Source: Herpetosiphonaceae bacterium (GTDB lineage Bacteria > Chloroflexota > Chloroflexia > Chloroflexales > Kallotenuaceae). Taken from it: a stretch of 64,000 nt of DNA. How positions within the stretch are numbered: position 1 is the first letter of the stretch; every line of letters begins with the position of its first letter. Under the pieces are notes generated by a model, which made no database searches, was not told where the DNA came from, and saw only the letters and a list, made by a program, of their open reading frames with translations. Positions 8,576 to 43,078 of this stretch are shown here, one piece after another. Made by a program: the position numbers and the translations under genes. The stretch covers positions 1,730-65,729 of the forward strand of contig DASWTW010000024.1 in assembly GCA_036401895.1 (NCBI GenBank), given 5' to 3'.

Positions 8576-10150
<1,575 letters not shown>

Positions 10151-10415
10151 ACGAAGAACCAAGAACTTAGAACCTAGAACTGGGGAAACGAACAAGAGAA
10201 CAAACGAACAAGAAAACAAAGGATAAAGAGACTTCGCCAGACTCCCCCTCGCCTGTGCCGTAGGCAACCGAGGGGGAAGCCTGCCGAGGTTCGGGGAAGG
10301 GGGAAGGCACGGCAGTGCCAGGGGATGAGGGCCTGTCAAGGACCAACGAAACCTAGAACCTAGAACCAAGAGAAAACGACGTTAGGTTCTGGGTTCTAGG
10401 TTCTTCAAGGAAACT
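10151..10415. repeat. Composite intergenic repeat: GAACNNN heptamer array, then a GC-rich hairpin module (CCCCCTCGCC...GGGGATGAGGGCC), then an inverted heptamer array (GAACCTA x2 ... GGTTCT x3)
   Basis: Read directly; same architecture as the elements at 11570, 21340, 41662, 49836, 54001 and 61070. Confidence 0.7.
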
Positions 10416-11558
10416 ATGCCAATCTCATATGCAGAACCTGTGTCGCTGACGTGTCCGCGCTGCCAGACGCCGTTCATCAACGACACCTTTATCATCGTGG
10501 ATGGCGTCGAGCGGCCGGACCTGGTCGCGCGCATTCTGGACGATACGCTCCACGACGCTCGCTGTCCCAGCTGCCAGCAGGTTGGCCGCGTGCCGGCGCC
10601 GCTGCTCTACCACGACGGACGCAACGCCCGCGTGTTGCTTGGCGTGCCGCCCGACATGTCGGAGGCCGAGTGGCGCGGGGTAGGGCAGACGCTGCTGTGG
10701 ACGCTGATCGGCGCGCTGCCGGAGCAGGCCCGGCTGCCCTACCTGGGCGATGTCCAGGCCGAGGCCGGAGTCGCCGGCGTGGCGCAGATTATCCGCAGCG
10801 AGAAGCTGGCCGGATCGGATGAGGACGAGACCGAAGCGCTGCCGCCGATCGTGATCGCGATCCAGGCGCTGCTCGAAGCCCGAGGCGCGGCCGAGCTTCA
10901 GCAGACGCTCGCTCAGCACCCGATCTTGAACGAGCCGCAGTCGGTGACGATTATGCAGGAGCTGGCGGCGGAGGCGATCAAGCACGGACAGATCGAGGCC
11001 GCGAATGGCTTTGCTCGTGCCGCGGAGCTGCTGGATCAGGTCAAGCAGATGCGCTCGCAGGCGCCCACGGTCGCCGTCGATCTGGGAGCCGATGCGCAGC
11101 GCCTGACGCCTGAAGAGCTGGAGTCGCTGGCGTTTGCTCTGCTGCGCAGCACGACAGGACAGGAGCTGGCGCGCACAGTCGACGAGCATCCTGAGCTGCT
11201 GGAAGACTGGATCGACAGCGCGCTGGCCGCCTACGCCGCGCAGGCCCGTCGCGAGGACAAGCCGCGCATCGCCGATGGCCTGGACGAGCGCCGCGTCGCC
11301 CTGGGGGAGATGCGCGAGCAGTACCGCGCCCAGCAGCCGGTGCTCGAAGCGCTTCAGAGCTATTTGCAGGCCGAGAGCGGCGACGAGATCGAGGCCATCG
11401 TGCTGGAAAACGAGCTGCTGACGACCGACGCCGCCGATCAAGCCCTGGCGCGACTTGCCGAGAGTGCGCGCGCCGACAACGATCAGGACTTCGCCGCGTT
11501 TGTCGAGGAGCGCCGCCGCTTCTTGCAGCAGGTTCGCGCCGCCCTGGAAGAAGAATAA
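10416..11558 (+). CDS. CpXC-type zinc-ribbon (CPRC...CPSC) protein with helical C-terminal region, hypothetical
   Basis: Two CxxC pairs in the first 55 aa; remainder is acidic and helical; the long antisense ORF 10425..11441 is rejected. Confidence 0.5.
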   Translation: MPISYAEPVSLTCPRCQTPFINDTFIIVDGVERPDLVARILDDTLHDARCPSCQQVGRVPAPLLYHDGRNARVLLGVPPDMSEAEWRGVGQTLLWTLIGALPEQARLPYLGDVQAEAGVAGVAQIIRSEKLAGSDEDETEALPPIVIAIQALLEARGAAELQQTLAQHPILNEPQSVTIMQELAAEAIKHGQIEAANGFARAAELLDQVKQMRSQAPTVAVDLGADAQRLTPEELESLAFALLRSTTGQELARTVDEHPELLEDWIDSALAAYAAQARREDKPRIADGLDERRVALGEMREQYRAQQPVLEALQSYLQAESGDEIEAIVLENELLTTDAADQALARLAESARADNDQDFAAFVEERRRFLQQVRAALEEE

Positions 11559-11569
11559 GCAGTACCTCG

Positions 11570-11750
11570 CTAAGCCCCTTCTCCTGCCGCAACCGAGGCG
11601 GAAGCTCGCCGAGGTTCGGGGAAAGGGGTTGGGGATGAGAGCCTGAGGACCAACGAACGAACAAAAGAACTAGCGAACAAGGGAACAAAGGGTTGCGATT
11701 CCTACGGTTTTGTTCCTTTGTTTCCTTGTTCCTTTGTTCCATAAACCGTC
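11570..11750. repeat. Composite intergenic repeat (GC-rich module CCCTTCTCCTGCCGCAACCGAGGCGGAAG...GGGGATGAGAGCC plus inverted GAACAAAG/CTTTGTTC heptamer arrays)
   Basis: Read directly. Confidence 0.65.
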
Positions 11751-11828
11751 CTTCACACCACGATCGCGCGATTTGCTATAATGAGCGCGATTTGATCGCG
11801 CCATAATTATCTGTAAAGGGAGGCGGCG

Positions 11829-13076
11829 ATGGCGAATAGACCCCGTGTGGTAGTCACCGGATTAGGCGCTGTGACGCCGCTGGGCTTGGATGTTGCCAGC
11901 TTGTGGAGCGGCATCAAAGAAGCGCGCAGCGGCATCGGGCCGATCACGCGCTTCGATGCCAGCGACTTCGATACCAAAATTGCCGCCGAGGTTAGCGGCT
12001 TCGATCCGCTCACGGTCCTCGATCGGAAAGAGGCGCGGCGCACCGACCGCGTGATTCAGCTGGCGATCGCGGCGACCGACGAGGCGCTGCGCCATGCGGA
12101 GCTTAAGATCACCGAGGCCAACGGCGATCGCGTCGGCGTGCTGATCGGCAGCGGCATTGGCGGCATCGAGACGATCAGCGACAACATGGACGCGCTGCGC
12201 TCACGCGGTCCCGGCCGGGTCAGCCCGTTTACCGTCCCGATGATGATCGCGGACATGCCAGGCGGCATGGTCTCAATCCGCTACGGCGCGAAAGGTCCCA
12301 ACTACGCGCCGGTCTCAGCCTGCGCCACGTCGGGCAACGCGATCGGCGAGGCGGCGGCGATCATCCGGCGCGGCGATGCCGATGTCATGATCGCGGGTGG
12401 GACCGAGGCCGGGATTGTGCCGATTGCGATCGCGGCCTTCAATGCGGCCAAAGCGCTCTCGACACACAACGATCATCCTGAGTCGGCCTCGCGGCCCTTC
12501 GACAAAACGCGCGACGGCTTTGTGATGGGCGAAGGTGCGGGGATTCTGATCCTTGAGCGGCTGGAGCACGCGCTGGAGCGGGGAGCGCCGATCCTGGCCG
12601 AGATCCTGAGCTACTCCACTACCGCCGACGCCTACCATATCACGATGCCCGACGAGCTCGGCTCGGGAGCGGCCAAGGCCATGCAGAACGCGCTGAACTT
12701 TGCCGGGCTCCAGCCAGGCGACATCGACTATTTGAACGCACACGGCACCTCGACGCAGGCCAACGACCGGCTCGAAACCCTGGCGATCAAAACCGTCTTT
12801 GGCGAGACCGCCAGGCACGTGCCGGTCAGCTCATCCAAATCGCAGTTTGGGCATCTGCTCGGCGCGGCCGGCGCGGTCGAAGGTGTGATCTCGATCCTGG
12901 CGATCCGCGAGGGCTTGCTGCCCGCGACGATCAACTACACCACGCCCGATCCCGAGTGCGATCTTGACTATGTGCCGAATACGCCGCGTCGTGCGACAGT
13001 CAAGCGAGTGATGTCCAACTCGTTCGGCTTTGGCGGCCACAACGTTAGCCTGATCTTTGGCAGCTACGAGTCATGA
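11829..13076 (+). CDS. fabF: 3-oxoacyl-[acyl-carrier-protein] synthase II
   Basis: 415 aa; N-terminus RVVVTGLGAVTPLG, active-site Cys context SACATSGNAIG, His-His motifs. Confidence 0.95.
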   Translation: MANRPRVVVTGLGAVTPLGLDVASLWSGIKEARSGIGPITRFDASDFDTKIAAEVSGFDPLTVLDRKEARRTDRVIQLAIAATDEALRHAELKITEANGDRVGVLIGSGIGGIETISDNMDALRSRGPGRVSPFTVPMMIADMPGGMVSIRYGAKGPNYAPVSACATSGNAIGEAAAIIRRGDADVMIAGGTEAGIVPIAIAAFNAAKALSTHNDHPESASRPFDKTRDGFVMGEGAGILILERLEHALERGAPILAEILSYSTTADAYHITMPDELGSGAAKAMQNALNFAGLQPGDIDYLNAHGTSTQANDRLETLAIKTVFGETARHVPVSSSKSQFGHLLGAAGAVEGVISILAIREGLLPATINYTTPDPECDLDYVPNTPRRATVKRVMSNSFGFGGHNVSLIFGSYES

Positions 13077-13135
13077 TCCTACCAGCGTTCTGATGCGCAC
13101 GGGCAAACAGCTATCGGAACGTCCAACAAAAGTGT

Positions 13136-13879
13136 ATGCCTGCGGTTGAAAAACTTATGTCCGCGCTCCGCGTGCAGTTCAAAGATCCCGATCTGCTCCT
13201 GAGTGCGCTCACTCATCGCTCCTACGTCCATGAGCACTACCAGACCTCGCTCCAGCCCAACGAGCGGCTAGAGTTTCTGGGCGACTCGGTGCTCAATTTT
13301 TTGACGGCGCAGTTTTTGTATCAGACCTTTCCGCAGCGCGGCGAGGGTGAGCTGACTGCGATGCGCGCCTCGCTGGTGCGCACCGGTATGCTGGCTCGCT
13401 TTGCGCGGCAGCTTGAGCTGGGCAGCTTTCTCAAGCTCGGCAAAGGCGAGGAGCACAGCGGCGGTCGCGAGCGCGACAATCTGCTGGCCGATGCCTTCGA
13501 GGCCGTGATCGCCGCGATCTATCTCGATCAGGGCATGGAGGCGGCGCATCGTTTTCTGCTGCCGTATCTCGAATCCGAGGCCGCGCGCATCGTCGTTCAT
13601 GGGCTCCAGCTCGACGATAAAAGCCGCTTGCAGGAGCGCGTCCAATCCGAGCGCAACCAGACGCCGCGCTATCGCACCGTGAGCGCGGAAGGGCCGGATC
13701 ACAATCGGGTCTTTACGATCGAGGTGCAGGCGGGCGGCGACCGGCTGGGCGTTGGCGTCGGCAACAGCAAGCAGGCGGCAGCGCAGGCGGCGGCGCGAGC
13801 AGCGCTAGAGTACCTGGACTCGCTTGAGTCGCAGAGCAGCAAAGCCGACGGCAAAGCTGAAGGACCTGCGAGCGAATGA
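13136..13879 (+). CDS. rnc: Ribonuclease III
   Basis: ALTHRSY...ERLEFLGDSVL RNase III signature plus C-terminal dsRBD; start could also be the ATG at 13157. Confidence 0.9.
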   Translation: MPAVEKLMSALRVQFKDPDLLLSALTHRSYVHEHYQTSLQPNERLEFLGDSVLNFLTAQFLYQTFPQRGEGELTAMRASLVRTGMLARFARQLELGSFLKLGKGEEHSGGRERDNLLADAFEAVIAAIYLDQGMEAAHRFLLPYLESEAARIVVHGLQLDDKSRLQERVQSERNQTPRYRTVSAEGPDHNRVFTIEVQAGGDRLGVGVGNSKQAAAQAAARAALEYLDSLESQSSKADGKAEGPASE

Positions 13880-14724
13880 GCGGCACGCTGTTGATCACCG
13901 GCGCGAGCGGCTATCTGGGCCGTGAGCTGGCGCGTCAGGCGGTCCAGGCAGGCTGGCAGACGGTCGGCACCTTTCGGCGCGCATCGCTGGCAATCCCCGG
14001 CGTTCGCTGGCAGCCGCTCGACGTCCGCGATCGAGCGGAGGTCGACGCGTGTGTCGCCGAGATCCGGCCCGACGCGATCGTTCATGCCGCAATCGCTGAG
14101 CCAACCGAGTGGACGACCAACGCCGACGGCGCGGCGCATGTGGCGCTGGCAGCTCGCGATCACGGCACTCGGCTGGTACACGTTTCCAGCGATGCGATCT
14201 TTAGCGGCGCGCCTCAGCCCTACGACGAGAGCGCCGCGCCCGATCCGATCACACCTTACGGCGCGTCCAAAGCCGCCGCCGAGACCGCCGTCAGCGCGAT
14301 CCTGCCCACGGCGGCGATCGTGCGCACGTCGCTGATCATCGGCGCGGAGCCGTACAAACATGTGCGTATGGTGCTGGATATGCTGACCGGCCAGCGCTCC
14401 GACGCGCTCTTCAGCGACGAGATTCGCTGTCCCGTGGCGGTGGCAGATCTGGCAGCGGCGCTGCTGGAGCTGGCACATAACGACTACGCGGGCGTGCTCA
14501 ACGTCTCGGGCGCCGATGCGCTGAGTCGCTATGAGCTTGGCGTGCTTATTGCTCGGCGCTGGCAGTATGATCCGGCGCGGCTGAGCGCCATCACCACCGT
14601 CGAAAGCGGGCTGCGACGGCCGACCAACGTGCGTCTGGATATTCGACGCGCGCAACGATTGCTTCAAACCCAGCTGCGGGGAGCGACGAGCTTTATCGCC
14701 AGCCTGGAGATCGAAAAGAGTTAA
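13876..14724 (+). CDS. NAD(P)-dependent sugar-nucleotide reductase, RmlD (dTDP-4-dehydrorhamnose reductase)-like SDR
   Basis: N-terminal LLITGASGYLG Rossmann motif, YGASKAAAE catalytic motif; start overlaps the rnc stop (ATGA). Confidence 0.6.
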   Translation: MSGTLLITGASGYLGRELARQAVQAGWQTVGTFRRASLAIPGVRWQPLDVRDRAEVDACVAEIRPDAIVHAAIAEPTEWTTNADGAAHVALAARDHGTRLVHVSSDAIFSGAPQPYDESAAPDPITPYGASKAAAETAVSAILPTAAIVRTSLIIGAEPYKHVRMVLDMLTGQRSDALFSDEIRCPVAVADLAAALLELAHNDYAGVLNVSGADALSRYELGVLIARRWQYDPARLSAITTVESGLRRPTNVRLDIRRAQRLLQTQLRGATSFIASLEIEKS

Positions 14725-14740
14725 CATTTAGGAAGCGAAC

Positions 14741-15712
14741 ATGAGTCGTTTTGACGAGCTGCGGATTTTTAGCAGTACCGGCCATCCAGGGCTGGCTGAG
14801 GCGATCTGCTCGTATATCGGCGTGCAGACCGCAGGCATTCACGTTGAAAAGTTTCCCAACGATAACATTTTTGTAAAGCTTTCCGAGAGCGTGCGCGAGC
14901 AGGATGTGTTCATCGTGCAGTCGCTGCACACGCCGCTCAGCGATCGGATCATGGAGCTGCTGCTGACGATCGACGCCTGCAAGCGCGATTCGGCCGGCCG
15001 GATCACGGCGGTGCTGCCCTACTACGCCTACAGCCGCACCGACAAGCGCGATCAGCCGCGTGTGCCGATCAGCGCCCGTCTGCTGGCCGACATGATCGAG
15101 GTGGCCGGCGCGAACCGTGTGCTGACGCTTGATCTGCACGCCGGCCAGATCCAGGGCTTTTTCCGCATTCCGTTCGACGAGATGAGCGCGATGCATCTGC
15201 TGCTTCAGCGTGTTCGTGAGCTGGATCTGGAGAACGCTACGGTGGTCGCCCCGAGCCTGGGCTTTGCCAAGCGCGCCCGCAATTTCGCCGAGCTGCTGGG
15301 CATGCCGCTGGCGCTGGTCGAGCGCCGCCACGATCTCAAAGAAACCGAGGTCAGGCATCTGAATCTGCTGGGCGATGTCACCGGCCGCGCCTGTATTATC
15401 GTCGACGACGAGGTAGCTACCGGCAAGACGATGCTGCGGGTGGCCGAGCTGCTCAAGGAAAAAGGCGCGGAGCGGCTGATCGGCGCGACGATCCACCCGC
15501 TGCTGTGCGACGGCGCGATCGAGCGCTTCAAGCAGGGCTCGATCGAGATGCTGATCACCACCGACTCGATCCCGCATCCCGAGGAGACCTGGAGCGGCCT
15601 CAAGGTGTCGTCGGTCGCGCCACTGTTGGGCGAGACGATCCTGCGTATCCACAAGGGCATCTCGGTGGGCGCGATGTTCGCGGATGGTCACGCGCAGCTT
15701 GGCCGCTGGTAA
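14741..15712 (+). CDS. prs: Ribose-phosphate pyrophosphokinase
   Basis: 323 aa with a PRPP synthetase architecture and PRPP-binding loop (IIVDDEVATGKT). Confidence 0.95.
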   Translation: MSRFDELRIFSSTGHPGLAEAICSYIGVQTAGIHVEKFPNDNIFVKLSESVREQDVFIVQSLHTPLSDRIMELLLTIDACKRDSAGRITAVLPYYAYSRTDKRDQPRVPISARLLADMIEVAGANRVLTLDLHAGQIQGFFRIPFDEMSAMHLLLQRVRELDLENATVVAPSLGFAKRARNFAELLGMPLALVERRHDLKETEVRHLNLLGDVTGRACIIVDDEVATGKTMLRVAELLKEKGAERLIGATIHPLLCDGAIERFKQGSIEMLITTDSIPHPEETWSGLKVSSVAPLLGETILRIHKGISVGAMFADGHAQLGRW

Positions 15713-15802
15713 GATCGACATTTGGGCAATCTGGCTGGGTGGCGCGTCGATCGACGCGCCATCGACGTTTATGTAGGTAGCGATCAGGTTGAAGGATTTA
15801 GA

Positions 15803-16264
15803 ATGAAGTGGCCGCGTTTCCGCTCCGGCAAATCGGCTGACAGGCCAAGCAGGCTGCCGCCGCCCGCGCTGCTCGACCGGCTGTATCCACGCGTGCTGGG
15901 CTTTGCTTATCAGGTGCTGGGCGATGCCGAGCTGGCAGCGCAGGCAGCCGAGACGATCTTTGTGCGGCGCGATCCGGCCCAAAATGAGCTTGCGGTCTGG
16001 ACGGCCGCCGTGGCCACGATGCGCAGCTACATTGCGCGCGGCTTTGTGGTCCGGCCGCTGGTGCCGCAGACCCAGAGCTGGCAGACCGATCTGCTGAGGC
16101 GGCTGGCGCAGCTAGAGCCGATGGAGCGCGCGCTGCTGCTTTTGCGGTATCATGAGGATCTTGAGCCGGCAGATCTGGCGCAGGTGCTGGGGATTTCCGA
16201 GGATGAGCTGCGCAAGCAGGTGGCGCTGGCACGCGGAAAGCTGCTGGATCTCGCGAATATGTGA
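15803..16264 (+). CDS. ECF-type RNA polymerase sigma factor (sigma-70 region 2 and 4), region 2 degenerate
   Basis: Region-4 HTH RALLLLRYHEDLEPADLAQVLGISEDELRKQ; RBS GAAGGA; followed by an overlapping anti-sigma gene. Confidence 0.6.
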   Translation: MKWPRFRSGKSADRPSRLPPPALLDRLYPRVLGFAYQVLGDAELAAQAAETIFVRRDPAQNELAVWTAAVATMRSYIARGFVVRPLVPQTQSWQTDLLRRLAQLEPMERALLLLRYHEDLEPADLAQVLGISEDELRKQVALARGKLLDLANM

Positions 16265-16599
16265 TGGTTAGTTGTACCGATATTGAGCCGCTGCTCTCCG
16301 ACTACGCCGACGGCATTGCAGATGAGCGCGCCCGGCGGATCGTCGAGCGCCATGTGCAGCTGTGCTCCCGCTGCCGTCAGCGCGTGCAGGCGGCGCATCA
16401 GGTCGCGCAGCAACTGCGGCGCTTGCCGCTGCTGCCGGCCGGTGTGTCGAGCCGGGCGGCGCGCTTTAAGCGGCGGATGGAGGCCCGAGCCATGCGCGAT
16501 CCACGGCGGCTTGAGCACTACCCGTTCTTTGTTTCGGCGCTGCTGGCCTCGCTGCTGATCCTGATCATGCTGCTGGCACTGTTCTACCTCGGCATTTGA
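16261..16599 (+). CDS. Zinc-finger (HxxxCxxC, ZAS-type) anti-sigma factor with C-terminal TM helix
   Basis: HVQLCSRCRQ motif; hydrophobic C-terminus; start overlaps the sigma gene stop (ATGTGATGG). Confidence 0.55.
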   Translation: MMVSCTDIEPLLSDYADGIADERARRIVERHVQLCSRCRQRVQAAHQVAQQLRRLPLLPAGVSSRAARFKRRMEARAMRDPRRLEHYPFFVSALLASLLILIMLLALFYLGI

Positions 16600-16602
16600 G
16601 TG

Positions 16603-16848
16603 CTAGCGATCGCGGTTGCGCCGCTCCTCAGCCAGCTCTTGCTCGTCGCCCCGCAGCAGCCGCACGATCTCGTCGTCGCGCCGCCGGTTCGCCTGCCGCT
16701 CGTTGAGCGAGGCCATCCGCCGCTCCAGGTCTTCCTCCTCCTGCGACATGTTGAGCTGCGACTCCCAGTAGCGCCGGATCGCGAGAAACACCACCACCAG
16801 CAGCGCCGCCACGACCACAAACACGATATTCAGCATCTCTTGGCTCAT
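16603..16848 (-). CDS. Small single-pass membrane protein (81 aa) with strongly charged E/R-rich C-terminal tail, hypothetical
   Basis: N-terminal TM helix IVFVVVAALLVVVFLAI then RRYWES...EEEDLERR...RRRDDE; lies 80 bp downstream of the CHAT-STAND gene on the same strand; the longer start at 16926 is also possible. Confidence 0.4.
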   Translation of the reverse strand: MSQEMLNIVFVVVAALLVVVFLAIRRYWESQLNMSQEEEDLERRMASLNERQANRRRDDEIVRLLRGDEQELAEERRNRDR

Positions 16849-16929
16849 GGTACCAATCCTTAATCGCCATCCCCGGCGATCTCGATCATCTGTTGGAAAT
16901 GTACCATAAACCAGCATAGATGCCACGCG

Positions 16930-19900
16930 CTACGTCTTGCCCTGCATCGCTGCCTGAATATCTGCGATCAGTTGCTGTGTCTTCTGGATCTTGTCCGCTG
17001 CACCTGTACCATAAGGCTCAAAGTTGCGCAGCGCAGCCTGGGCGTAAAGCAATGCATCGTCGAGCCGACCAGCATTAGCGAGAGCAAAGGCAACATTTTG
17101 ACGAGCTTGACCTGCATCATAGAAATTACTTGCCACTTCCAGATAACGGATTGCTTCGCGGTAATGGAATAAAGCCAGGTCCAGATTGCCAACTTTATCG
17201 TAGATATTGCCCAATCCATTATGGGTCACCGCCAGATCACTCACCGCATTTGGTGGCAACAATTCAAGACCTTGAATATAGAATTGGAGTGCAGTATTGA
17301 GATACCTAATCAATTCTTGATGTGGCTGGTTCACAACGTACGCTTCCTTGAAACGCTCATAGGCCACATTCCCTAACGCAATCAAGCACTGAGATCGATC
17401 ATGCTTTACCAACTCTTCAGATATATCCAAACTGTGCTGGTACCAGTGTTCGGCCTGTTCTAAATCGCGAATAGCAACAATATCCTTATAAGCATGACCA
17501 AGGTTGAAGGCGATTAGTGCTTCTTCCTGCTTGTCACCTATTCTCTGACATAGTGCAATTCCGTCTTCGTAAGATACAACACATTCAGACTTGTTTTGTT
17601 CCCGCAGAATGCTACCCAAATTCTCTACTGAGACAGCAAGCGAACGAATATTATTTCGCTGATTTTCATCCAACACTTCCACCGGCAAGGAAAGAGCATC
17701 AGAGGCAAGATGGCGATTCCACTCAACGCGAGAGCGTTGCAATCGCTCAGCATTTATCCAGTCACGCGCTTTGAGAGCTAACCGCACGCGGTACTGACCA
17801 AGTAGCCTCCATTGGTCCTCGCGTCCAGCTAACGGACCGCCACTAACTGGGTCCACAAAGTCTGGCACGATATCGTCCACTAACCACTGTAACTCAGCTA
17901 AGCGGTTTGTGCGGTCGTACAGTAAATATAAGCCTTGCATCGTCCTGATCACCAGGTGCCACCAGCCGTTGTTGTGAGCAATTTGTCGAGCATAAAGAAG
18001 GTTAGCTGCTTCGAGTTTCAGCACGTTGATCGCATCGCGGTTGCCCTGTACGAATTGGGCAGTGTAATAGCTTGACAAGTCGCCCATTGATTCCACATAG
18101 GCACGAGTCGTACCTTGTTGTTGCTCGTTCGTCAAGTAATACTGCTCAAACAGGCTCTTGAAATACCATGGCAGCACGGGGTGAATAGCATAGTAGCCAC
18201 CATATACAGCGAGCAAGCCAACCTCAGCGGCACGGTCTAGCAGCCTGATGCCTGTCTCACGAGTCAATTCGCGTACTTCGGGTAGATCACCAATTTCGGG
18301 ATTACCCATGGCTTGCAGCGTAGCTATCTGCACAAAACCTTGGAAGAAATGCAGCAGCGCGAGGATCTTGCGCTCGTCGTCGGTGAAGGCGTGCTCGAAG
18401 CCGTAGCTCAGGGATGCGCCCAACGATTTCGTGCGGCCTTCGGTTGTTTCGTCCTCGAAAGCTGCCTCGCCTGCGCGGAGTTTGGCGACGAAATCATCGA
18501 TCTGCTTGGTAGTGCGGAGGCCATCGCGAATCGCCTGACCTACGAGAACGGTGATCGTCAGCGGGTTGCCCTGCGTGTACACCAGCAGCGGGTTGAGCAC
18601 TCCAATTTCCTTCTGCTTCCAGCCGTGCTTCTCAGCCAGCGCCCGAGCCAGCTGCTTGCGCTCTTGCAGCGGCATCGGCGGAACCTGGATGCGGGCCGGA
18701 AGATCGCCGAGCCAGCCGCGCTCATCTCGCCGTGAGGTCAGCAGGAATTTTGCCTGGGTTTGCCGCGCCGCCCGTAGAAAATCGGCTAGCTCGCGCTGCT
18801 CCTGCTCGCTCCATGAGGATTGTGTACCAGATGGAAAGCCTGCGACTGGCTCGACGTTGTCCCAGATCCACAGCACCGGAATCTGGCGCAGCACTTGCAG
18901 TGCGACAGCCTGCCGCTGCTCATCTGTCAGCGTGAGCCAGTGGATGTTGTTCTGCTCAAGCAGCGGCTCGAACACACGGCCCAGCGTATCCAGCACACGC
19001 GGCAGCGGCGTGTACTGCTCGAACGAGGTCCACAGCACCGGCCCCTTGATGCCACCCGTCAGCTTATACCAGCGCGCAAACTCGGCCGCAGTCGTGGTTT
19101 TGCCGCTGCCGGCGTAGGCGTGGAGCAGTACCACTTGCTGCGTATCAAACGCGCGATCCAGCGCCAGCAGCGTCTCGTCGCGGCCAAAGAAGCCGGCATC
19201 CGGCTCCGGCGGCACGTTCGCAACGCCCGACTCAGCCGTGGGCGTGGCAGCGGCAGGCTCGAGTTTGATCGCGAGCTTCTGGCTGCGCTTGGGCTTGGGA
19301 AACAATTTGACCGGCTCGGCCTCGTACACGATCGGCACGGGCCAGTCGGCGAGCGGAATAGGCTTAGACACCACCTCACGCAGCGGCCGATCGGCCAGAT
19401 TCTTGCGGCCACGCGACACCGCCTCGCCGAGAGTCAGACCCTGCGTCAAGGTGGCGTACAGCTCGGCCACGAACTGCGCCGCCGTCACCACATACACGTT
19501 GTAGCGCATCGCCACCACGCCGGCCGCGCCCGCGTCCATGACCTCCTGCGCCAGCGAGCCGAACGCCCGCACCTGCTCATGTGGACTAGACGTATCGTCG
19601 GCTGGCGATGCGGAGATTGCAGCGTCTATCGCTGATTGGGAATCGGACGTATGCTCGGCGTGAGCTGAGCGGCAGGCATTCAGCACCAGCACCGGCACGC
19701 CAGTTTCGACCAGCAGATTTCCCAGCGCAGGACCGTCGACGGGCTCGAAGTTGTCGGGCAGCGCGTGGTTCTCGAAGGCCAGGTAGCCATGCTTGCCCGG
19801 CCGGTGGTCGGTGAAGATGTCGGAACCAAATCCACCGCCCACGTTCTGATACTCGCCATAGACGCCGTGCCCATCGAAATGCACGACGTGATAGGGCTCG

Positions 19901-20568
19901 CCGCGATCTCTGGCATCGTGCAGCTCACGGGAAAGCTGCTCGAATGTTGGTGGGCGCAGCACATGCAGATCGAATGCGGCGCGCGCCTCCTTGCTCAACC
20001 CCTTGATCAAACGGCTGGCAACCGAGCGAAACGGCACATCGCTGCGACCACCAGGGCGGCAGATGACCAGCAAGATGCGGATCGGGCCGGATGCACCCGG
20101 CAATCTGGGCGGCTGAGCCGGATTAGAAAGCGTGCGCACAAAGGATTGAGCGCGCAAGGCCAGCGGCCGATCAGTCTGTGGATCGTGGAGCAACTCCCAG
20201 GGAATCGCTGTAGCGTCGCGAACATCGGTGACAATCTCGACCCGCGTTTTTTGCAGATGCTCATACATGCGTGACCAAAGCCGCGTCACGTCGCGATTGG
20301 ACTCGAAAAGCTTGTGAAACAGCTCAGCCCCGATCTCGCGCATCCGCTTTTCGACACGTGCGGCGATCGACGGATTCGGATCATAGGGATGCTGAAGATA
20401 TTCTTCCAGATACCAGCGCAGCTCATTCCGATCTGTGTCGTTGAGCGCAAAAGCAAAACGAGCGACCGCAGTCTGTCGTGATCCGACACCTTCCAGCGCA
20501 AGCTCCACTCGATAGTGATCCGAGCTTTCGGCGAACTGCGTCAGGCGCAACGTCAGACGATCAGGCAT
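16930..20568 (-). CDS. CHAT-domain (caspase-like Cys protease) - NB-ARC/STAND P-loop NTPase - TPR-repeat protein (1212 aa)
   Basis: CHAT His/Cys dyad contexts VVHFDGHG and LVLNACRSA; FFGRDETL...HAYAGSGKTTTA Walker A and LWIWDNVEP Walker B; C-terminal TPR-like helical repeats; RBS AAGGA 8 nt upstream. Confidence 0.85.
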   Translation of the reverse strand: MPDRLTLRLTQFAESSDHYRVELALEGVGSRQTAVARFAFALNDTDRNELRWYLEEYLQHPYDPNPSIAARVEKRMREIGAELFHKLFESNRDVTRLWSRMYEHLQKTRVEIVTDVRDATAIPWELLHDPQTDRPLALRAQSFVRTLSNPAQPPRLPGASGPIRILLVICRPGGRSDVPFRSVASRLIKGLSKEARAAFDLHVLRPPTFEQLSRELHDARDRGEPYHVVHFDGHGVYGEYQNVGGGFGSDIFTDHRPGKHGYLAFENHALPDNFEPVDGPALGNLLVETGVPVLVLNACRSAHAEHTSDSQSAIDAAISASPADDTSSPHEQVRAFGSLAQEVMDAGAAGVVAMRYNVYVVTAAQFVAELYATLTQGLTLGEAVSRGRKNLADRPLREVVSKPIPLADWPVPIVYEAEPVKLFPKPKRSQKLAIKLEPAAATPTAESGVANVPPEPDAGFFGRDETLLALDRAFDTQQVVLLHAYAGSGKTTTAAEFARWYKLTGGIKGPVLWTSFEQYTPLPRVLDTLGRVFEPLLEQNNIHWLTLTDEQRQAVALQVLRQIPVLWIWDNVEPVAGFPSGTQSSWSEQEQRELADFLRAARQTQAKFLLTSRRDERGWLGDLPARIQVPPMPLQERKQLARALAEKHGWKQKEIGVLNPLLVYTQGNPLTITVLVGQAIRDGLRTTKQIDDFVAKLRAGEAAFEDETTEGRTKSLGASLSYGFEHAFTDDERKILALLHFFQGFVQIATLQAMGNPEIGDLPEVRELTRETGIRLLDRAAEVGLLAVYGGYYAIHPVLPWYFKSLFEQYYLTNEQQQGTTRAYVESMGDLSSYYTAQFVQGNRDAINVLKLEAANLLYARQIAHNNGWWHLVIRTMQGLYLLYDRTNRLAELQWLVDDIVPDFVDPVSGGPLAGREDQWRLLGQYRVRLALKARDWINAERLQRSRVEWNRHLASDALSLPVEVLDENQRNNIRSLAVSVENLGSILREQNKSECVVSYEDGIALCQRIGDKQEEALIAFNLGHAYKDIVAIRDLEQAEHWYQHSLDISEELVKHDRSQCLIALGNVAYERFKEAYVVNQPHQELIRYLNTALQFYIQGLELLPPNAVSDLAVTHNGLGNIYDKVGNLDLALFHYREAIRYLEVASNFYDAGQARQNVAFALANAGRLDDALLYAQAALRNFEPYGTGAADKIQKTQQLIADIQAAMQGKT

Positions 20569-21205
20569 GGGCGTTTCCTTTATCGTTCTCTGGGGTTATG
20601 TCGAGCATACCACAGCAGGCGCGGGAAAAACAATCTCAGGCCCGGCACCAAAGCACAGCCACAGCCAGGCGAGCAGGGTCATAGGAACTGTTATCGACCA
20701 GAGGATCAACTGGAAAAAGCGAAGCTGTTACAGGAGATTCAGGTAGCGGCGCAGGCGAAAGAGCGGCTTGCGCCGCTGGTTTGCCCAATCGTGGATGAGG
20801 AGAAGATGCTGCGCGTTGCCGCGAACGGTTGCATAGCGCCGCTCGATCCGCGCCCACGTGAGTCGTTGTGGATCGCTGTCATCGAGCGTACGAGACTCTG
20901 TACGTGCGTGAGTCTCTAAAGCTTCTGCACGCCGAATAATATCGACAAGCTGCGCGCGGTAGTTTGCCCCACTTTTACGATGGTCAGGAACCATCATAAA
21001 TGACCACCTCGCGTCTAAAACTATCGACAGTATAGCGTAAATTACGTACAGCGTGAAGCGATTGAATCCTTCATTTAGCAATCTTAACTGGATGTTGACA
21101 ATTTTATACTTTACTACAGTACGTAATACATCTATCAGAACATGAATTCGTTCTCGACACCCAACATACGCCTTTGTACCGCGACTGGACGCAGCGACGC
21201 GCACG

Positions 21206-21234
21206 AAAAAGCGACACTCCCTAAGGAGTGTCGC
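21206..21234 (-). terminator. Perfect 10-bp hairpin GCGACACTCC-ttag-GGAGTGTCGC followed by UUUUU (minus-strand sense), 3 nt after the tRNA 3' end
   Basis: Read directly. Confidence 0.7.
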
Positions 21235-21237
21235 TGG

Positions 21238-21314
21238 TGGTGGGCGATACTGGACTCGAACCAGTGACCTCTGCCGTGTGAAGGCAGCGCTCTAACCAAC
21301 TGAGCTAATCGCCC
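21238..21314 (-). tRNA. tRNA-Val: tRNA-Val (anticodon CAC), 3' CCA encoded
   Basis: Reverse complement GGGCGATTAGCTCAGTTGGTTAGAGCGCTGCCTTCACACGGCAGAGGTCACTGGTTCGAGTCCAGTATCGCCCACCA folds as a canonical cloverleaf (7-bp acceptor, anticodon loop TTCACAC, T-loop TTCGAGT). Confidence 0.95.
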
Positions 21315-21339
21315 GCGTGTGGCAGAAAGTATAGCATGG

Positions 21340-21530
21340 AAGTATCTTTCGTGCAAGGAGCGCGAAGCACCAAGAACCAAGAACAAAGGAACAAAGAAAC
21401 AAGCGAACAAACGGAGAACTGAGAACACAGAACCAAAAGCAGAACTGCAAAGTACCAGATTCCCCTCTCCTGCGGCGGCGGGAGAGGGGGTGCCGAACAA
21501 CGTGAGGCGGGGGTGAGGGCCTGCCCAAAC
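21340..21530. repeat. Composite intergenic repeat (GAACNNN heptamer array plus GC-rich module CCCCTCTCCTGCGGCGGCGGGAGAGGGGG...GGGGGTGAGGGCC)
   Basis: Read directly; lies between tRNA-Val and the YcaQ-like gene. Confidence 0.65.
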
Positions 21531-21531
21531 C

Positions 21532-22749
21532 TCATGCCCGTACTGCCGCCTGCAAGACCGCCTGTAGCTGCGCCGGCTCGCTCCTGTCGATCACAACCTC
21601 GGGCGTGCGATGCCACCGCGCGCAAGACAGCAGCATCTGAGCAAGATCCGCCACCACCGCATCGTCGAGGGTGACGTGCGGCTCAAGATAGATCGCCTTG
21701 ACCCGAAACACGCCGGCTTTGCGCTCGGCCTTGGCATCCAGCCGCCCGACCAGATCGCCGCGCCGCAGGATCGCCAGCACGAAGTAGCCGTAGCGCCGCT
21801 TGGGCTCGGGGACGTAGCACTCCAGCACATATTCAAAGCCCCACAGATCCCTCGTGCGATCGCGATGCCAGATCAGGCTGTCGAAGGGCGTCAGCAGCGT
21901 GGTGTGCTCCGGCGTGGGCAGGCCGCTCGTAAATTGCTGCCAGCTACCGCGATGAACGTAAACGGGCGCGGACCAATCCGCCACCTGCACGCGCTCGGCC
22001 AGCCCCTCGCCGACAAGCGACTCAAGCACCTGGGCTAATCCGGCCTGCTTCTGGCGAAAATAATCGGCCAGCTGGCGCGTCGTAGCCAGCCCCATCGCCT
22101 GGAGCGCGATCTCCGCCAGCCGCCGCCGTCGCTCCTCCTCGGTGGGAAGCTGCGAGTCGTCCCAGCCGGGCAGGAGCCGCTCACGCAGATCGTAGCGCCG
22201 GTGGAAGTTCACCCGCCGCTCGATCATCAGCTCGCCGCTGGTCCACAGCGCGTCAAGCGCGATCTTAGCGGGCTTCCAGTCCCACCAGCCGCCGCCTTTA
22301 TGTCCCGAAGGCGCTTCGAAATCGGCCGCGCCCAGCGGCCCACGCTCGCCGATCTGAGCCAGCACATGCTCCATAACTTCGGCGTTCTCGGCGCGCCACT
22401 TCGCCCACCCGCCGCTCTCACCGTTCGCATACTCAAGCATCCGGCTGCGAAAAAGCGGCCAGTGCTCGATCGGAATGATGCTGGCGGCGTGCGCCCAGTA
22501 CTCGAACACCTGCCGATCGGGATACAGCAACTCGTCCAGCCAGGCCGGATCGTACTCGCCGAGGCGGCTCCACAGCACAAAGTAAGGGCTGCGCGCCACC
22601 ACATGAATCGTATCGATCTGAAGGCAGCCGAGCCGCCGGATCACATCCAGCACATCGGCCTTTGTTGCAGTGTCAGGCCGACGATCCAGCGCCTGAGCCG
22701 CGACCGCAATCCGCTGCGCTTCGGTCAGCGTAAGATTGGTTGTTGACAT
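21532..22749 (-). CDS. Winged-helix DNA-binding protein of the YcaQ/DUF1006 family (putative DNA glycosylase)
   Basis: 405 aa; overall similarity in pattern (conserved W/Y-rich core, C-terminal wHTH) recalled from this family; not verifiable here. Confidence 0.45.
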   Translation of the reverse strand: MSTTNLTLTEAQRIAVAAQALDRRPDTATKADVLDVIRRLGCLQIDTIHVVARSPYFVLWSRLGEYDPAWLDELLYPDRQVFEYWAHAASIIPIEHWPLFRSRMLEYANGESGGWAKWRAENAEVMEHVLAQIGERGPLGAADFEAPSGHKGGGWWDWKPAKIALDALWTSGELMIERRVNFHRRYDLRERLLPGWDDSQLPTEEERRRRLAEIALQAMGLATTRQLADYFRQKQAGLAQVLESLVGEGLAERVQVADWSAPVYVHRGSWQQFTSGLPTPEHTTLLTPFDSLIWHRDRTRDLWGFEYVLECYVPEPKRRYGYFVLAILRRGDLVGRLDAKAERKAGVFRVKAIYLEPHVTLDDAVVADLAQMLLSCARWHRTPEVVIDRSEPAQLQAVLQAAVRA

Positions 22750-22860
22750 TGATCTCCCATACGGCTAAGCACGAAAGTGACGAGCCCAGCATCCAACTTG
22801 CTCGTCACCAATGCTCCCTGATGATCAAAGACTGCCGAACACAGTACGCTTGTGAAACGG

Positions 22861-24201
22861 CTAGCTGCGGATGAAGCTGAGCACCTCGTCGCGCTTCTGC
22901 TCCATCTTGTCTTTTGACAGCGCCTCAAGATTCAGGCGCAGCAGCGGCTCGGTGTTGGATGCGCGAACATTGAAGTGCCAGTCGTCGTACGAGACCGAGA
23001 TACCGTCGATGTGCTCGACCTTGCCGTCGCTGTAGTGCTGAGCAAGCTCCTGCATCTTGGCCTGCGCGTCCGGCACCGTCGAGTTAATCTCGCCCGACAC
23101 AAAATACTTGGCCTCGATCGGCGCCAGCAGCTCGCTGAGCTTCTTGCCGCTGGTGGAGAGCATCTCCAGGATCAGCAGCGACGGAATCATGCCCGAGTCG
23201 GCATAGTTGAAATCGCGGAAATAGTAGTGGCCCGAAACCTCGCCCGCGAAGACCACGTTTTCGTCGGCCATGCGGCGCTTGATAAAGGCGTGGCCCACAC
23301 GCTCGATCAAGGGCGTGCCGCCGACAGCTTTGACCATATCCGAGACCGCCCACGAGGCGCGCACATCATAGACGATCTTTTCGTTGGGCTGCTTGCGCAA
23401 AATATACTCGGCCAGCAGCGCGGTCATAAAATCGCCGGGCACGAAATCGCCGCGATCGTCGATCACAAAGAAGCGGTCGCCGTCGCCGTCAAAAGCAAAG
23501 CCAATATCCGCGCCCTCGTCCTTGACGCGCTGCTCTAGCTCGGCGCGATTCTCGGGCTGAAGCGGGTCGAGGCCGTGGTTCGGCAGGTTGCCGTCAGGCT
23601 CGAAGTACATCGGCGTGAGCTGTACCGGCAGCTGCGCGTAGAGCTTTTCGAGCGCCGGCCCGACCATACCGTTGCCGGTGTCGGCGATCACCTTGAGCGG
23701 CTTGATCGCCGACACATCGATCAGCTTGAGCAGCGAGTCGACAAACTCGTCCATCAGATCGACCTCGCGCATCTCGCCCTGCCGCGTGGCCTCGGGAAAC
23801 TCGCCGGCCTGCGCCAGCCGCCGCAGATCTTGAATGCCTTCGTCGCCGCTGAGCAGATAGGGCATGCGCTTGACCATCTTGAAGCCGTTGTAGGCCTTGG
23901 GATTGTGCGAGGCCGTCACCATCATGCCGGGCTTGTCGAACTTCGCGCAGGCGTAGTAATATTGATCGGTGCTGACCATGCCGACGTTGATCACATCTGC
24001 GCCCTGCTCGCGAATGCCGGCCGTGACAGCGGCGAAGAGCGACGGCCCCGAGGTGCGCATGTCGCGTCCCACGACCACCGTATCGGTCTGCAAAAACGTT
24101 ACAAACGCCCGACCGATCAACCGCGCAGTTTCTTCGTTGAGCTGGTCTGGATAGATTCCACGAATGTCATAGGCTTTGAAAATCTTCGGATCGACGTTCA
24201 T
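22861..24201 (-). CDS. Phosphomannomutase/phosphoglucomutase (alpha-D-phosphohexomutase)
   Basis: N-terminus FKAYDIRGIYP, phosphoserine loop TASHNP, metal-binding DGDGDR. Confidence 0.9.
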   Translation of the reverse strand: MNVDPKIFKAYDIRGIYPDQLNEETARLIGRAFVTFLQTDTVVVGRDMRTSGPSLFAAVTAGIREQGADVINVGMVSTDQYYYACAKFDKPGMMVTASHNPKAYNGFKMVKRMPYLLSGDEGIQDLRRLAQAGEFPEATRQGEMREVDLMDEFVDSLLKLIDVSAIKPLKVIADTGNGMVGPALEKLYAQLPVQLTPMYFEPDGNLPNHGLDPLQPENRAELEQRVKDEGADIGFAFDGDGDRFFVIDDRGDFVPGDFMTALLAEYILRKQPNEKIVYDVRASWAVSDMVKAVGGTPLIERVGHAFIKRRMADENVVFAGEVSGHYYFRDFNYADSGMIPSLLILEMLSTSGKKLSELLAPIEAKYFVSGEINSTVPDAQAKMQELAQHYSDGKVEHIDGISVSYDDWHFNVRASNTEPLLRLNLEALSKDKMEQKRDEVLSFIRS

Positions 24202-40584: not shown

Positions 40585-40700
40585 ATACTTACTAAAGAAC
40601 AAAGGAGCCGAGAACCGAGAACCGAGAACCAAAGCAACCAGTGCCCGACGTGCAACCGCGGATGAGTGTTCATGCTCTATTCTTTGTTCTTTGTTTAGCT
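40585..40700. repeat. Intergenic GAACNNN heptamer palindrome (AGAACAAAGGAGCCGAGAACCGAGAACCGAGAACCAAAG ... TTCTTTGTTCTTTGTTTAGCTGTTCTTCC)
   Basis: Read directly; upstream of fmt. Confidence 0.65.
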
Positions 40701-40725: not shown

Positions 40726-41658
40726 ATGCGTATAGTTTTTTTGGGAACGCCCTCGTTTGCCGCGATCCCGCTGCGCGCGCTTGTCGAGTCCGGGCATGAG
40801 GTTGTCGGCGTGGTGACGCAGCCGGATCGTCCGGCCGGCCGCTCGAAAACGCCGCAGGCTCCGCCGGTCAAAGTTGCCGCCGTGGAGCTGGGATTGCCCA
40901 TTCTTCAGCCGCCAACGCTGCGCGATCCCGAGGTTGTCGAGCAGCTGCGCGCGCTGCGGCCGGATGTCGGCGTTGTGGCGGCGTATGGCGAGATCCTGCG
41001 CAAGAATGTGCTGGAGATTCCGCCGCTGGGCTATCTCAACGTCCATCCGTCGCTGCTGCCGCTCTACCGTGGCCCAACGCCGGTCGCGGCTGCGATTCTG
41101 GCCGGCGATGAGATCACGGGCGTGTCGATCATTCGCCTGATTCGCGCCATGGACGCTGGCCCGATCGTCGCGCAGGCCACGCTGACAATGCCGCCCGCTG
41201 CTCGCGCGGGCTCGCTGACCGACGAGCTGTTCGAGATCGGATCACAGCTGCTGGTCGGGGCGCTGCCCTTGTATGCCAGCGGCGAGCTTCAGCCGCAGCC
41301 GCAGGACGAGTCGCAGGCCAGCTACTGCTCGCTGCTGCGCAAGGAAGACGGCCAGATCGACTGGACGAAGCCGGCGCTGGTGATCGAGCGGGCGATTCGC
41401 GCCTATGATCCATGGCCGGGCGCGTTCACCACCTGGCAGGGCCAGCCGCTCAAGATTCGCACCGCCCGCGTCGACGCCGATTGGAATGGCGCAGAGGAGC
41501 CGGGAACGATCCTCGATCGGCCTACACTGCACGTCGCGACCGGCAGCGGCGCGCTGGAGCTGGTGGAGATTCAGCCGGCCGGAAAGCGGATGATGCCGGC
41601 GCAGGAATGGCTGCGCGGGCAGCGTGGTCTGGCGGGTCAGCGGCTGGGCGTGGAGTAG
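40726..41658 (+). CDS. fmt: Methionyl-tRNA formyltransferase
   Basis: N-terminus MRIVFLGTPSFA and formyltransferase core HPSLLPLYRG. Confidence 0.95.
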   Translation: MRIVFLGTPSFAAIPLRALVESGHEVVGVVTQPDRPAGRSKTPQAPPVKVAAVELGLPILQPPTLRDPEVVEQLRALRPDVGVVAAYGEILRKNVLEIPPLGYLNVHPSLLPLYRGPTPVAAAILAGDEITGVSIIRLIRAMDAGPIVAQATLTMPPAARAGSLTDELFEIGSQLLVGALPLYASGELQPQPQDESQASYCSLLRKEDGQIDWTKPALVIERAIRAYDPWPGAFTTWQGQPLKIRTARVDADWNGAEEPGTILDRPTLHVATGSGALELVEIQPAGKRMMPAQEWLRGQRGLAGQRLGVE

Positions 41659-41661
41659 GAT

Positions 41662-41785
41662 GGATTAAAGGCCCTCATCCCCCAACCCCTTCTCCCGTTG
41701 CCACAGGAGAAGGGGGAGAGAGTTGTACTTCTTTGTTCTGTTGTTCTTTGTTCTCGCCTTGGTTCTAGGTTCTAGGACTCTTTGA
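41662..41785. repeat. Composite intergenic repeat (GGCCCTCATCCCCC...CCCCTTCTCCCGTTGCCACAGGAGAAGGGGG hairpin plus CTTTGTTC/GGTTCTAGG heptamers)
   Basis: Read directly; between convergent fmt and the acyl-CoA dehydrogenase gene. Confidence 0.65.
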
Positions 41786-42917: not shown

Positions 42918-42959
42918 GGCCTATACTCCTATCACGTCATTGTGAGCATATGTTCTTGG

Positions 42960-43078
42960 CGCCATTATAGCACCTACGCCGGATCGGCTTAGAGAACAAA
43001 GGAACAAAGGAACCAAAGAACAAACGCAAAGCGACACAACCCAACAATCTTCTGTTCTTTGTTCTTTGTTCGCCCAAA
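42960..43078. repeat. Intergenic GAACAAAGG heptamer palindrome (AGAGAACAAAGGAACAAAGGAACCAAAGAACAAACG ... TTCTGTTCTTTGTTCTTTGTTCG)
   Basis: Read directly. Confidence 0.65.

Follow-up and report, generated by a model that had tools for sequence, protein, structure and literature searches.

A probable Chloroflexota-specific variant of the BoxC/PIT/TM_ECO repeat class between the genes of a Herpetosiphonaceae bacterium

A short GC-rich module recurs at eight sites in a 64,000-nucleotide stretch of contig DASWTW010000024.1 (GenBank assembly GCA_036401895.1; hereafter the window), which has a GC content of 62% and whose proteins match a metagenome-assembled genome (MAG) annotated as Herpetosiphonaceae bacterium, phylum Chloroflexota. 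The module is probably a non-coding, non-autonomous interspersed DNA repeat of the class known as BoxC, PIT, or TM_ECO (the 'intrastrand triplex motif'), of which it would represent a Chloroflexota-specific variant. Elements of this class have been known since the 1990s. To our knowledge, there is no agreed function for these elements, and the sole proposal, structure-induced genome instability, comes from comparisons of E. coli strains. A preliminary description of the window, made from the DNA alone, noted the hairpin of the module and a flanking GGCCCTCACCCC box, but missed the role of this box as a third block that mirrors the stem arms, as well as the apparent match of the whole three-block design to the BoxC/PIT/TM_ECO class.

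The module is shared at all eight of the sites originally named, four on the plus strand and four on the minus strand, is 43–92 bp in length, and lies between genes. The division into short and long variants was likewise borne out, as there are four short copies (43–60 bp) and four long copies (69–92 bp). Each module contains one box and one 3' hairpin half (eight of each in total), and on the C-rich strand the order in every copy is the box GGC(C/T)CTCA(C/T/G)CCC, a variable stretch, the loop half G(Y)(Y)GC(S)(R)CAGG, and the purine arm (A/C)GA(R)GGGG. The boxes of two window copies read GGCTCTCA. These parts occur far more often than expected by chance: the 3' half GYTGCSRCAGGMGARGGGG has 11 matches in the window at up to 3 mismatches, compared with 0.67 expected (none of 100 shuffles reaches 11), CCCCTCTCC occurs 6 times compared with 0.42 expected, and the box GGCCCTCACCCC occurs 6 times at up to 1 mismatch compared with 0.44 expected. 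Furthermore, 8 of the 9 window matches to GGCCCTCAYCCCC at up to 2 mismatches fall inside modules. The perfect 9–10 bp CCCCTCTCC/GGAGAGGGG stem that had been ascribed to all copies is a property of the short copies only, where it is found at 21462, 61073, and (with one mismatch) 49855, while the copy at 41670 carries the variant CCCCTTCTCC/GGAGAAGGGG. The 5' arm of the four long copies is instead CCCCCT(T/G)CCCC (CCCCCTKCCCC), followed by GAACCTCGGC..., and they carry CCCCGAACCTCGGC..., an insertion of 25–45 nt that makes the hairpin longer and irregular.

The E. coli element has been described under the names BoxC, PIT (potential intrastrand triplex), and TM_ECO (Bachellier et al.; Hoyne et al. 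2000; Holder et al. 2015, PMC4666352). The TM_ECO pattern is 5'-CCCTCNCCC N3-6 GGGNGAGGG N3 GGGNGAGGG-3', which corresponds to a class II (order Y-R-R') purine-motif intrastrand triplex, and the single strand folds stably as a triplex in vitro as judged by circular dichroism and nuclear magnetic resonance (NMR) (PMC4666352). Read on the G strand, all four short copies of the window have the layout Y-loop-R-linker-R', and the long copies have the same order with an altered Y block. The three blocks of the copies at 21462, 49855, and 61073 are CCCCTC(T/G)CC, GGGAGAGGGG, and GGGGGTGAGGG, and the copy at 41670 is one base longer in all three. These blocks are nearly identical to those of TM_ECO, which are CCCTC(T/G)CCC, GGGAGAGGG, and GGGGTGAGGG (core CCCTC(T/G)CC / GGGAGAGGG / GGGTGAGGG). 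For example, the window copy at 49855–49897 reads CCCCTCGCC / TGCCGCAGC / GGGAGAGGGG / CT / GGGGGTGAGGG, compared with CCCTCGCCCC / TTT / GGGGAGAGGG / CC / GGGGTGAGGGG in an E. coli TM_ECO. The correspondence extends to imperfections, as 12 of 25 Chloroflexota copies have the CTCGCC versus GGAGAG (G.A) mismatch of the E. coli 'mm' types, and to the A of the arm being T in the third block, a difference that makes a competing Watson-Crick hairpin less favourable.

The structure of the module has also been probed by comparison with copies from other genomes. A genome scan with the 3' half, using one genome per species, returned 112 stretches. The pattern is loose, and about one third of these stretches are true modules with a box and a 5' arm, while about two thirds are chance matches in genes of unrelated taxa, recognised by the absence of both. 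A box-anchored search added further copies with variant loops, giving a working set of 46 elements (26 short, 20 long). When 25 short hairpins from the window and several MAGs are aligned without gaps, standard pairs fill 95.6% of cells, and both partners have changed in 18 cells; 0 of 500 shuffles reach this level of pairing, and slid controls are 53–78% paired. The stem covariation that the preliminary description had proposed to look for is present in both forms. In the short forms, the main stem changes from C-G to U-A in 7 sequences, and a 2-bp mini-stem in the loop changes from C-G to U-A in 8 sequences and from G-C to A-U in 2. The long forms (n = 13) share an extended hairpin of 17 pairs, 7 of which show compensatory changes, including an inner 5-bp stem that occurs as GGCGG/CCGCC, GGTCG/CGACC, GCCAA/TTGGC, CGCCG/CGGCG, and GACGG/CCGTC around a conserved GCTT loop. 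The linkers between box and hairpin are often small hairpins as well, although of differing sequence (GGCC/GGCC, GGCAC/GTGCC, GATGC/GCATC, GTCAC/GTGAC). It is this covariation that supports the structure, rather than single-sequence folding energies, which range from -21 to -48 kcal/mol and are not clearly better than those of dinucleotide shuffles (z -0.2 to -2.3). With regard to the strand that folds, 12 of 25 short copies have a U.C mismatch at one stem position when the C strand is read, equivalent to G.A on the G strand, which mildly favours the G strand; there are very few cases of G.U versus C.A asymmetry from which to choose. A separate observation concerns L104 (7146–7192, module on the minus strand), where the arms and loop are inverted relative to the box and the loop reads TGTCGCAACGG instead of CCGTTGCGACA, pointing to flip-flop inversion inside the palindromic arms.

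The arms and the third block co-vary in a mirror-symmetric manner, as a triplex requires. Under the purine-motif rule, the box read 5' to 3' must mirror the 5' arm read 3' to 5', with C/C, T/T, or A/T at each position, and 22 of 26 short copies have 9–12 contiguous allowed triads by this rule (10–11 in the four window copies), where the class calls for a stem of at least 8. Copies with an extra base in both arms (CCCCTTCTCC/GGAGAAGGGG) have the box CCCTCATCCCC rather than CCCTCACCCC, and the extra base in the box is located at the position required by an antiparallel third strand, a mirror relationship and not a direct or inverted one. Since the standard blocks are themselves mirror-symmetric, only this extra-base variant reveals mirror as opposed to direct symmetry. 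Templated duplication yields direct or inverted repeats, not mirror repeats. Across copies, the box CATCCCC occurs with the arm GAAGGGG in 12 of 13 cases and the box CACCCC with the arm GAGGGG in 19 of 21 (Fisher p = 2e-6, a value that overstates independence since the copies are related by descent and both the shuffle and Fisher tests ignore kinship). The association persists within each genome, form, and loop type.

Taken together, these features would fit the following mechanism. The pyrimidine and purine arms pair as a hairpin, and the third block, GGCCCTCACCCC (GGGGTGAGGGCC on the G-rich strand), mirrors the arms. When the G-rich strand becomes single-stranded during replication, during repair, or in transcription bubbles, the third block could fold back antiparallel onto the purine arm to form a purine-motif triplex with G.GC, A.AT, and T.AT triads. 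The effect of such a fold would most likely be structural and not gene-specific, and the element may persist and turn over (gain, loss, and short-to-long remodelling) wherever it is tolerated, in most cases shortly after a stop codon and, within related genomes, at protein loops that are permissive to an in-frame insert. The comparisons establish the repeat family, its hairpins, the covariation of the three blocks, and the presence/absence polymorphism described below; formation of the triplex in vivo and its role in driving turnover are inferred.

Several points weigh against assignment to the BoxC/PIT/TM_ECO class or against a triplex as the feature under selection. The strict published TM_ECO pattern has 0 matches in the window, as the loops here are 9–12 nt and 2–18 nt or longer; a relaxed pattern (loops 9–13 and 1–30 nt) has 3 matches compared with 0 expected. 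Due to this difference in loop length, the module is classed as a variant and not as TM_ECO proper. Long copies, which make up half of those in the window, have only 4–7 allowed triads, and a full triplex thus cannot be the constraint that keeps their box. Furthermore, the covariation of box and arm could derive in part from linked variants of a few master copies, and the likeness to the E. coli element could reflect structural convergence rather than common descent. In E. coli, a stable triplex was not seen by dimethyl sulfate footprinting in vivo, and duplex DNA gave no triplex signal (PMC4666352). Finally, no transposase, target-site duplication, or phage link that would account for spread was found, the view of transposase genes being limited to a non-exhaustive scan of the ORFs in these 64 kb. 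In terms of earlier records, the text and supplements of Holder et al. 2015 (PMC4666352) do not mention Chloroflexi, nothing relevant was found in the literature on Chloroflexi or Herpetosiphon repeats, and the comparison with Rfam that had been suggested at the outset gave no family match at any module, either at the gathering score or at E values up to 5. The published finder (ITxF) permits loops of 1–6 nt (PMC4666352) and would therefore miss the Chloroflexota variant, so the family is probably under-counted.

True copies are found in Herpetosiphonaceae SMAG_U3579 (GCA_036402055.1), Chloroflexota CP_BM_RX_R8_21, four Thermomicrobiales MAGs, Sphaerobacterales, Roseiflexaceae, and Anaerolineae, and single copies are found on contigs binned as Candidatus Peribacteria and Thermoanaerobaculia. 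The copies outside Chloroflexota possess a box and a stem (L009 and L090 in Candidatus Peribacteria bins, L083 in Thermoanaerobaculia), and positions 2700–2732 of L090 match the strict TM_ECO pattern. These copies could represent either cross-phylum spread or mis-binned contigs. Viral contigs contain no true copy, their one match being a chance match in coding DNA without arms.

Presence/absence polymorphism is evident among close relatives. The CpXC gene of the window has relatives at 95% (L119), 91% (L120), 85% (L001), and 78% (L004) amino acid identity with conserved gene order. In both intergenic regions flanking CpXC, the window has a long form where L119 has a short form in the same place and orientation, while L120, L001, and L004 have no module at these same two sites. 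Just 10 nt separate the end of one L119 module from the start codon of CpXC. Between CpXC and the ketoacyl synthase gene, a heptamer inverted repeat of approximately 100 nt also abuts the box in the window; L119 lacks this repeat even though the module is present, indicating that arrays and module are separable units. Conversely, the 85% relative has an array hairpin alone at the IMPDH-CpXC site. Upstream of the ketoacyl synthase gene, window positions 11775–11805 contain an invariant CGATTTGCTATAATGAGCGCG (with the extended -10-like TGCTATAAT), which is conserved in the alignment of L119, L120, and L001, down to 85% identity, and the insertion point of module and arrays lies immediately upstream of it.

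The heptamer arrays consist of units of 7–8 nt (GAACAAA, GAACCTA, and complements), occur with or without a module, and often form long inverted repeats such as 11659–11689/11709–11739 and 647–668/737–758. In the window they are located at 640–760, 10150–10231, 10350–10404, 11658–11740, 21365–21411, 40608–40695, 42994–43071, 54005–54217, and 61298–61337. Modules had been described as always embedded between such arrays. An array is indeed present on at least one side of every window copy, but arrays are present on both sides in only three, and the 95% relative has a module without any array at one site. The array-box junctions at 10334–10350 and 11644–11660 are identical (GGCCTG..AGGACCAACGAA), and, in the forward direction, GGTACT is found 5–8 nt past the 3' arm, before the TTTGTTC units, in many copies of several MAGs. 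The composite of module and array may therefore have defined junctions.

In the two element-richest MAGs, many copies are located inside long open reading frames (ORFs) with the G-rich strand coding. Searches for the adenylation-domain motifs LVAYV and LPxYMxP in all frame combinations identified ten elements flanked by both, and each of the ten keeps the reading frame and contains no stop codon. The stretch between the two motifs measures 141–297 nt with the insert, as against 75 nt in a domain of that protein that lacks one. The nonribosomal peptide synthetase (NRPS) loci that carry module and heptamer arrays are L112:282-444 (+), L043, L055, L063, L065 (two), L068, L071, L074, L087, L092, and L100, and the ORF of L112 encodes a genuine NRPS, its domains being Condensation, AMP-binding, AMP-binding_C, and PP-binding. 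On translation of the inserts, the heptamers give EQRTKNQEP... and the module gives PPSPAAAGEGG..GEGL; a peptide search with the translated NRPS insert yielded no candidates. In-frame copies are also found outside NRPS genes, namely one at (-)819 of L036 in a 780-residue ORF, two in tandem at (-)1813 and 1936 of L110 in a 658-residue ORF, and three at 6032, 6080, and 1816(-) of L014 in an 855-residue ORF of a Roseiflexaceae MAG. If this interpretation is correct, an array-coupled repeat in Herpetosiphonaceae-like Chloroflexota adds 22–74 disordered residues to a permissive NRPS loop and would constitute a generator of protein insertions resembling the Rickettsia palindromic elements.

The eight window copies, with extents given from the box to the 3' arm, differ in form and setting. 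The focal copy (long, 90 bp) occupies 10244–10333 of the minus strand and has the box GGCCCTCATCCCC at 10321–10333, a spacer hairpin GGCAC-TGCC-GTGCC, the 5' arm and extension CCCCCTTCCCCGAACCTCGGCAGGCTT..., the atypical loop GTTGCCTACGGCACAGG at 10252–10268, and the 3' arm CGAGGGGG at 10244–10251; it is antisense to the IMPDH and CpXC genes on its flanks. The long copy at 11575–11643 of the minus strand (69 bp) has the box GGCTCTCATCCCC at 11631–11643, CCCCTTTCCCCGAACCTCGGCGAGCTTCCGCCTCG, the loop half GTTGCGGCAGG, and the 3' arm AGAAGGGG at 11575–11582, and is located between the stop of CpXC (11558) and the start of the ketoacyl synthase gene (11829), antisense to both. The short copy at 21462–21521 of the minus strand (60 bp, linker of 18 nt) has its box at 21509–21521 and the stem CCCCCTCTCC/GGAGAGGGG; it lies in the sense orientation 10 nt past the stop of an AlkZ-like gene (21532–22749, minus strand), with a tRNA downstream. 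Two minimal short copies follow on the plus strand. The first (41670–41716, 47 bp) has the box GGCCCTCATCCCCC, the linker AA, and the arms CCCCTTCTCC/GGAGAAGGGGG, with an extra T/A variant in all three blocks and 11 contiguous allowed triads, and begins 11 nt past the stop of an fmt-like gene; this copy is convergent with an acyl-CoA dehydrogenase gene. The second (49855–49897, 43 bp), whose G strand is set out above (its third block may also be given as GGGGGTGAGGGCC), combines the G.A mismatch of the 'mm' TM_ECO with 10 allowed triads and is found 20 nt past the stop of an FHA-domain gene. The long copy at 54091–54173 of the minus strand (83 bp) has the box GGCTCTCAGCCCC at 54161–54173 and an extra ACCCAGAGGGT mini-hairpin, and lies in the sense orientation 6 nt past the stop of an Indigoidine_A-like gene (54180–55139, minus strand). 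On the plus strand, the short copy at 61073–61127 (55 bp; linker hairpin GGCC-TAC-GGCC, 11-bp stem, and 2-bp mini-stem) begins 4 nt past the stop of a DUF1206 gene (60100–61068, plus strand) and forms a direct tandem with the long copy at 61157–61248 (92 bp), which has the linker hairpin GATGC-TTT-GCATC, then CCCCGAACCTCGG... and a ACCCAGAGGGT insert, and is followed by ATTTTTGGTACT and TTTGTTC-type arrays. Placement at gene 3' ends or at convergent or divergent sites, said to be invariable, is found at five sites, where the box is in the sense orientation 4–20 nt past the stop of the AlkZ-like, fmt-like, FHA-domain, Indigoidine_A-like, and DUF1206 genes (counting the tandem 61073/61157 once), while the copies at 10244 and 11575 are antisense between co-directional genes. 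The 1212-residue ORF at 16930–20568 (minus strand) has a third-position GC content of 0.64, compared with 0.78–0.84 in its neighbours, and may have been acquired horizontally.

The preliminary description favoured a terminator or mRNA stabiliser. In an orientation-dependent version of this proposal, the C-rich-sense hairpin, with U-rich TTTGTTC arrays a few bases beyond it, would either halt RNA polymerase or protect the transcript from 3' exonucleases. Six of the eight window copies are in the sense orientation with the box 4–20 nt past a stop (88 nt for the second tandem member), the hairpins are stable (-21 to -48 kcal/mol), most Herpetosiphonaceae-type copies have T-rich arrays past the 3' arm, and the copies in NRPS ORFs and between co-directional genes are G-sense, which would fit an orientation-specific effect. 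However, no T-run is found within 0–2 nt of the stem, and terminator and promoter scans of 9000–23000 and 41550–61500 flagged no module hairpin itself. The only nearby terminator matches, two at 54097–54074 (minus strand), pair the 3' arm of the module at 54091–54173 with the downstream flank and do not involve the module stem. The same scan does pick up tRNA and T-box terminators. Indeed, the tRNA gene at 21210–21314 (minus strand, 73 bits) is followed by an intrinsic terminator with an 11-bp stem and TTTTT at 21235–21210, indicating that ordinary terminators exist in this genome and look unlike the modules. The second such region, 55173–55488 (plus strand), is likely a T-box leader, with a near-consensus promoter (TTGACA-17-TATGAT) at 55173–55201, an Rfam T-box match at 55207–55472 (E = 4.9e-13; 69.7 bits, below the gathering score of 93), and a terminator-like hairpin with T7 at 55459–55488, ahead of an ORF starting at approximately 55433. 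Across the 46 elements, 12 copies at gene 3' ends are sense and 7 antisense, a difference that is not significant (ORFs for this count were filtered by GC3>GC1>GC2, GC content at the third, first, and second codon positions). Copies 10244 and 11575 run opposite to the genes beside them, Thermomicrobiales copies lack T-rich arrays, the L119 copy lies 10 nt upstream of a start codon, and related MAGs carry the element in frame inside NRPS ORFs, a further argument against a general terminator role. TM_ECO/PIT elements are reported to have neither promoter nor terminator activity (PMC4666352), and a terminator leaves the conserved mirror-symmetric box unexplained. Thus, the transcriptional role is unsupported and we regard it as unlikely.

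An explanation based on mobility, which we rate as equally unlikely, is that the module is a transposase-mobilised element of the REP/REPIN (RAYT) type or a miniature inverted-repeat transposable element, in which hairpin and box serve as sites for an HUH or other transposase acting in trans. The module is high-copy, intergenic, hairpin-forming, found in both orientations, and polymorphic in presence among close relatives; it has conserved ends (CAGGCC at the 5' side, GGTACT 5–8 nt past the 3' arm), and its compensatory stem changes are what structure-recognising single-stranded DNA transposases tolerate. REP superfamilies, however, are defined by a GTAG or CGTC tetranucleotide at the end of the palindrome (PMC3733652), and neither adjoins the stem in any of the eight copies, the ends being CAGGCC...GGTACT. 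The original designation REP-like applies only loosely, to the extent that the repeat is short, interspersed, able to form a hairpin, found in either orientation, and for the most part located between genes. The aligned ends also have no terminal inverted repeats, and there is no signal of target-site duplication: the longest shared flank word averages 5.7 versus a null of 5.2 (45 elements), and the one 9-nt repeat shared by flanks, in L119, does not go beyond the tail of the null. The window has no inverted REPIN-style doublets, its sole pair being a direct tandem, and at two orthologous sites the form changes in place without the element moving. Another proposal is a binding site for a host protein (nucleoid-associated, gyrase/IHF-like, or Rho-type) that reads the C-rich box and stem, such that the box is kept for protein contact and not for a triplex. 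Retention of the box in long forms with only 4–7 triads speaks for it. The loop GYTGCSRCAGG is conserved beyond pairing needs, and at five window sites the C-rich, G-poor box and 5' arm lie directly past stops. Yet no candidate protein is known, the hairpin of the L104 copy is flipped relative to its box, a linker that varies from 2 to 30 nt or more would be awkward for a rigid bipartite site, and mirror-type covariation is not obviously expected, making this proposal improbable. Least probable is that the four G-runs of the purine arm and third block fold on the G-rich strand as a G-quadruplex that affects replication or expression. The only two canonical quadruplex motifs in the 64 kb (loops of up to 7 nt) do fall in the modules at 41670–41716 and 49855–49897, but six of the eight copies lack one owing to long linkers or altered arms, the pyrimidine arm is conserved and co-varying although a quadruplex does not need it, and NMR of the E. 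coli element indicates a triplex and not a quadruplex (PMC4666352).

The near base-for-base recurrence of the design in a distant phylum, with the same mismatch, suggests that the element has either spread horizontally over a very wide range or arisen by strong convergence on a structure. A fuller proposal is put forward only tentatively: BoxC-type motifs would be a cross-phylum family of structured repeats and not an enterobacterial or cyanobacterial curiosity, their blocks would co-evolve by the mirror rule, and in Herpetosiphonaceae-like Chloroflexota the element would in addition colonise NRPS loops in frame in the manner of Rickettsia elements. If true, the mirror covariation would be the first comparative, in vivo-relevant evidence of selection on a triplex or on a factor that reads the triplex. 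For annotation of the Herpetosiphonaceae genome, the message is that the modules are to be treated as repeats and not as terminators, small RNAs, or genes.

Comparison with known systems places the module closest to TM_ECO. Intrinsic terminators and SPRITE-like repeats share the GC-rich hairpin just past the stop that is seen in most window copies, but the module differs from them in having no U-tract at the stem, an extra conserved box, and copies that are antisense, upstream of starts, or inside ORFs. Similar to REP, BIME, and REPIN sequences, the module is a short (20–40 bp core), GC-rich, imperfect palindrome that is extragenic, present in many copies, near gene 3' ends, and subject to lineage-specific expansion; in contrast to them, it has no GTAG/CGTC tag, possesses a third, non-palindromic block, and forms no inverted doublets in the window. 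Rickettsia palindromic elements (RPE) are in-frame repeats of approximately 150 bp (PMC10969869). The repeat and heptamer arrays of the related MAGs resemble RPE in being inserted in frame and apparently translated as an extra surface loop, whereas their sequence is unrelated, all eight window copies are intergenic, and the in-frame copies cluster at one position of the NRPS adenylation domain. TM_ECO is always intergenic, without strand bias, patchy in distribution, and tied to local genome variability (PMC4666352). Relative to TM_ECO, the Chloroflexota element has a first loop of 9–12 nt that is conserved (CGYTGCSRCAGG) and has its own 2-bp stem (3–6 variable nt in TM_ECO), a linker of 2–18 nt in short forms that is longer in long forms and often a small hairpin (3 nt in TM_ECO), long forms with a structured insertion of 25–45 nt and lower triad potential, accompanying heptamer arrays, and, in related Chloroflexota, copies in frame inside genes. 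Like TM_ECO, it is multi-copy, intergenic in the window, present in both orientations, patchy among close relatives, and subject to local turnover by insertion and deletion.

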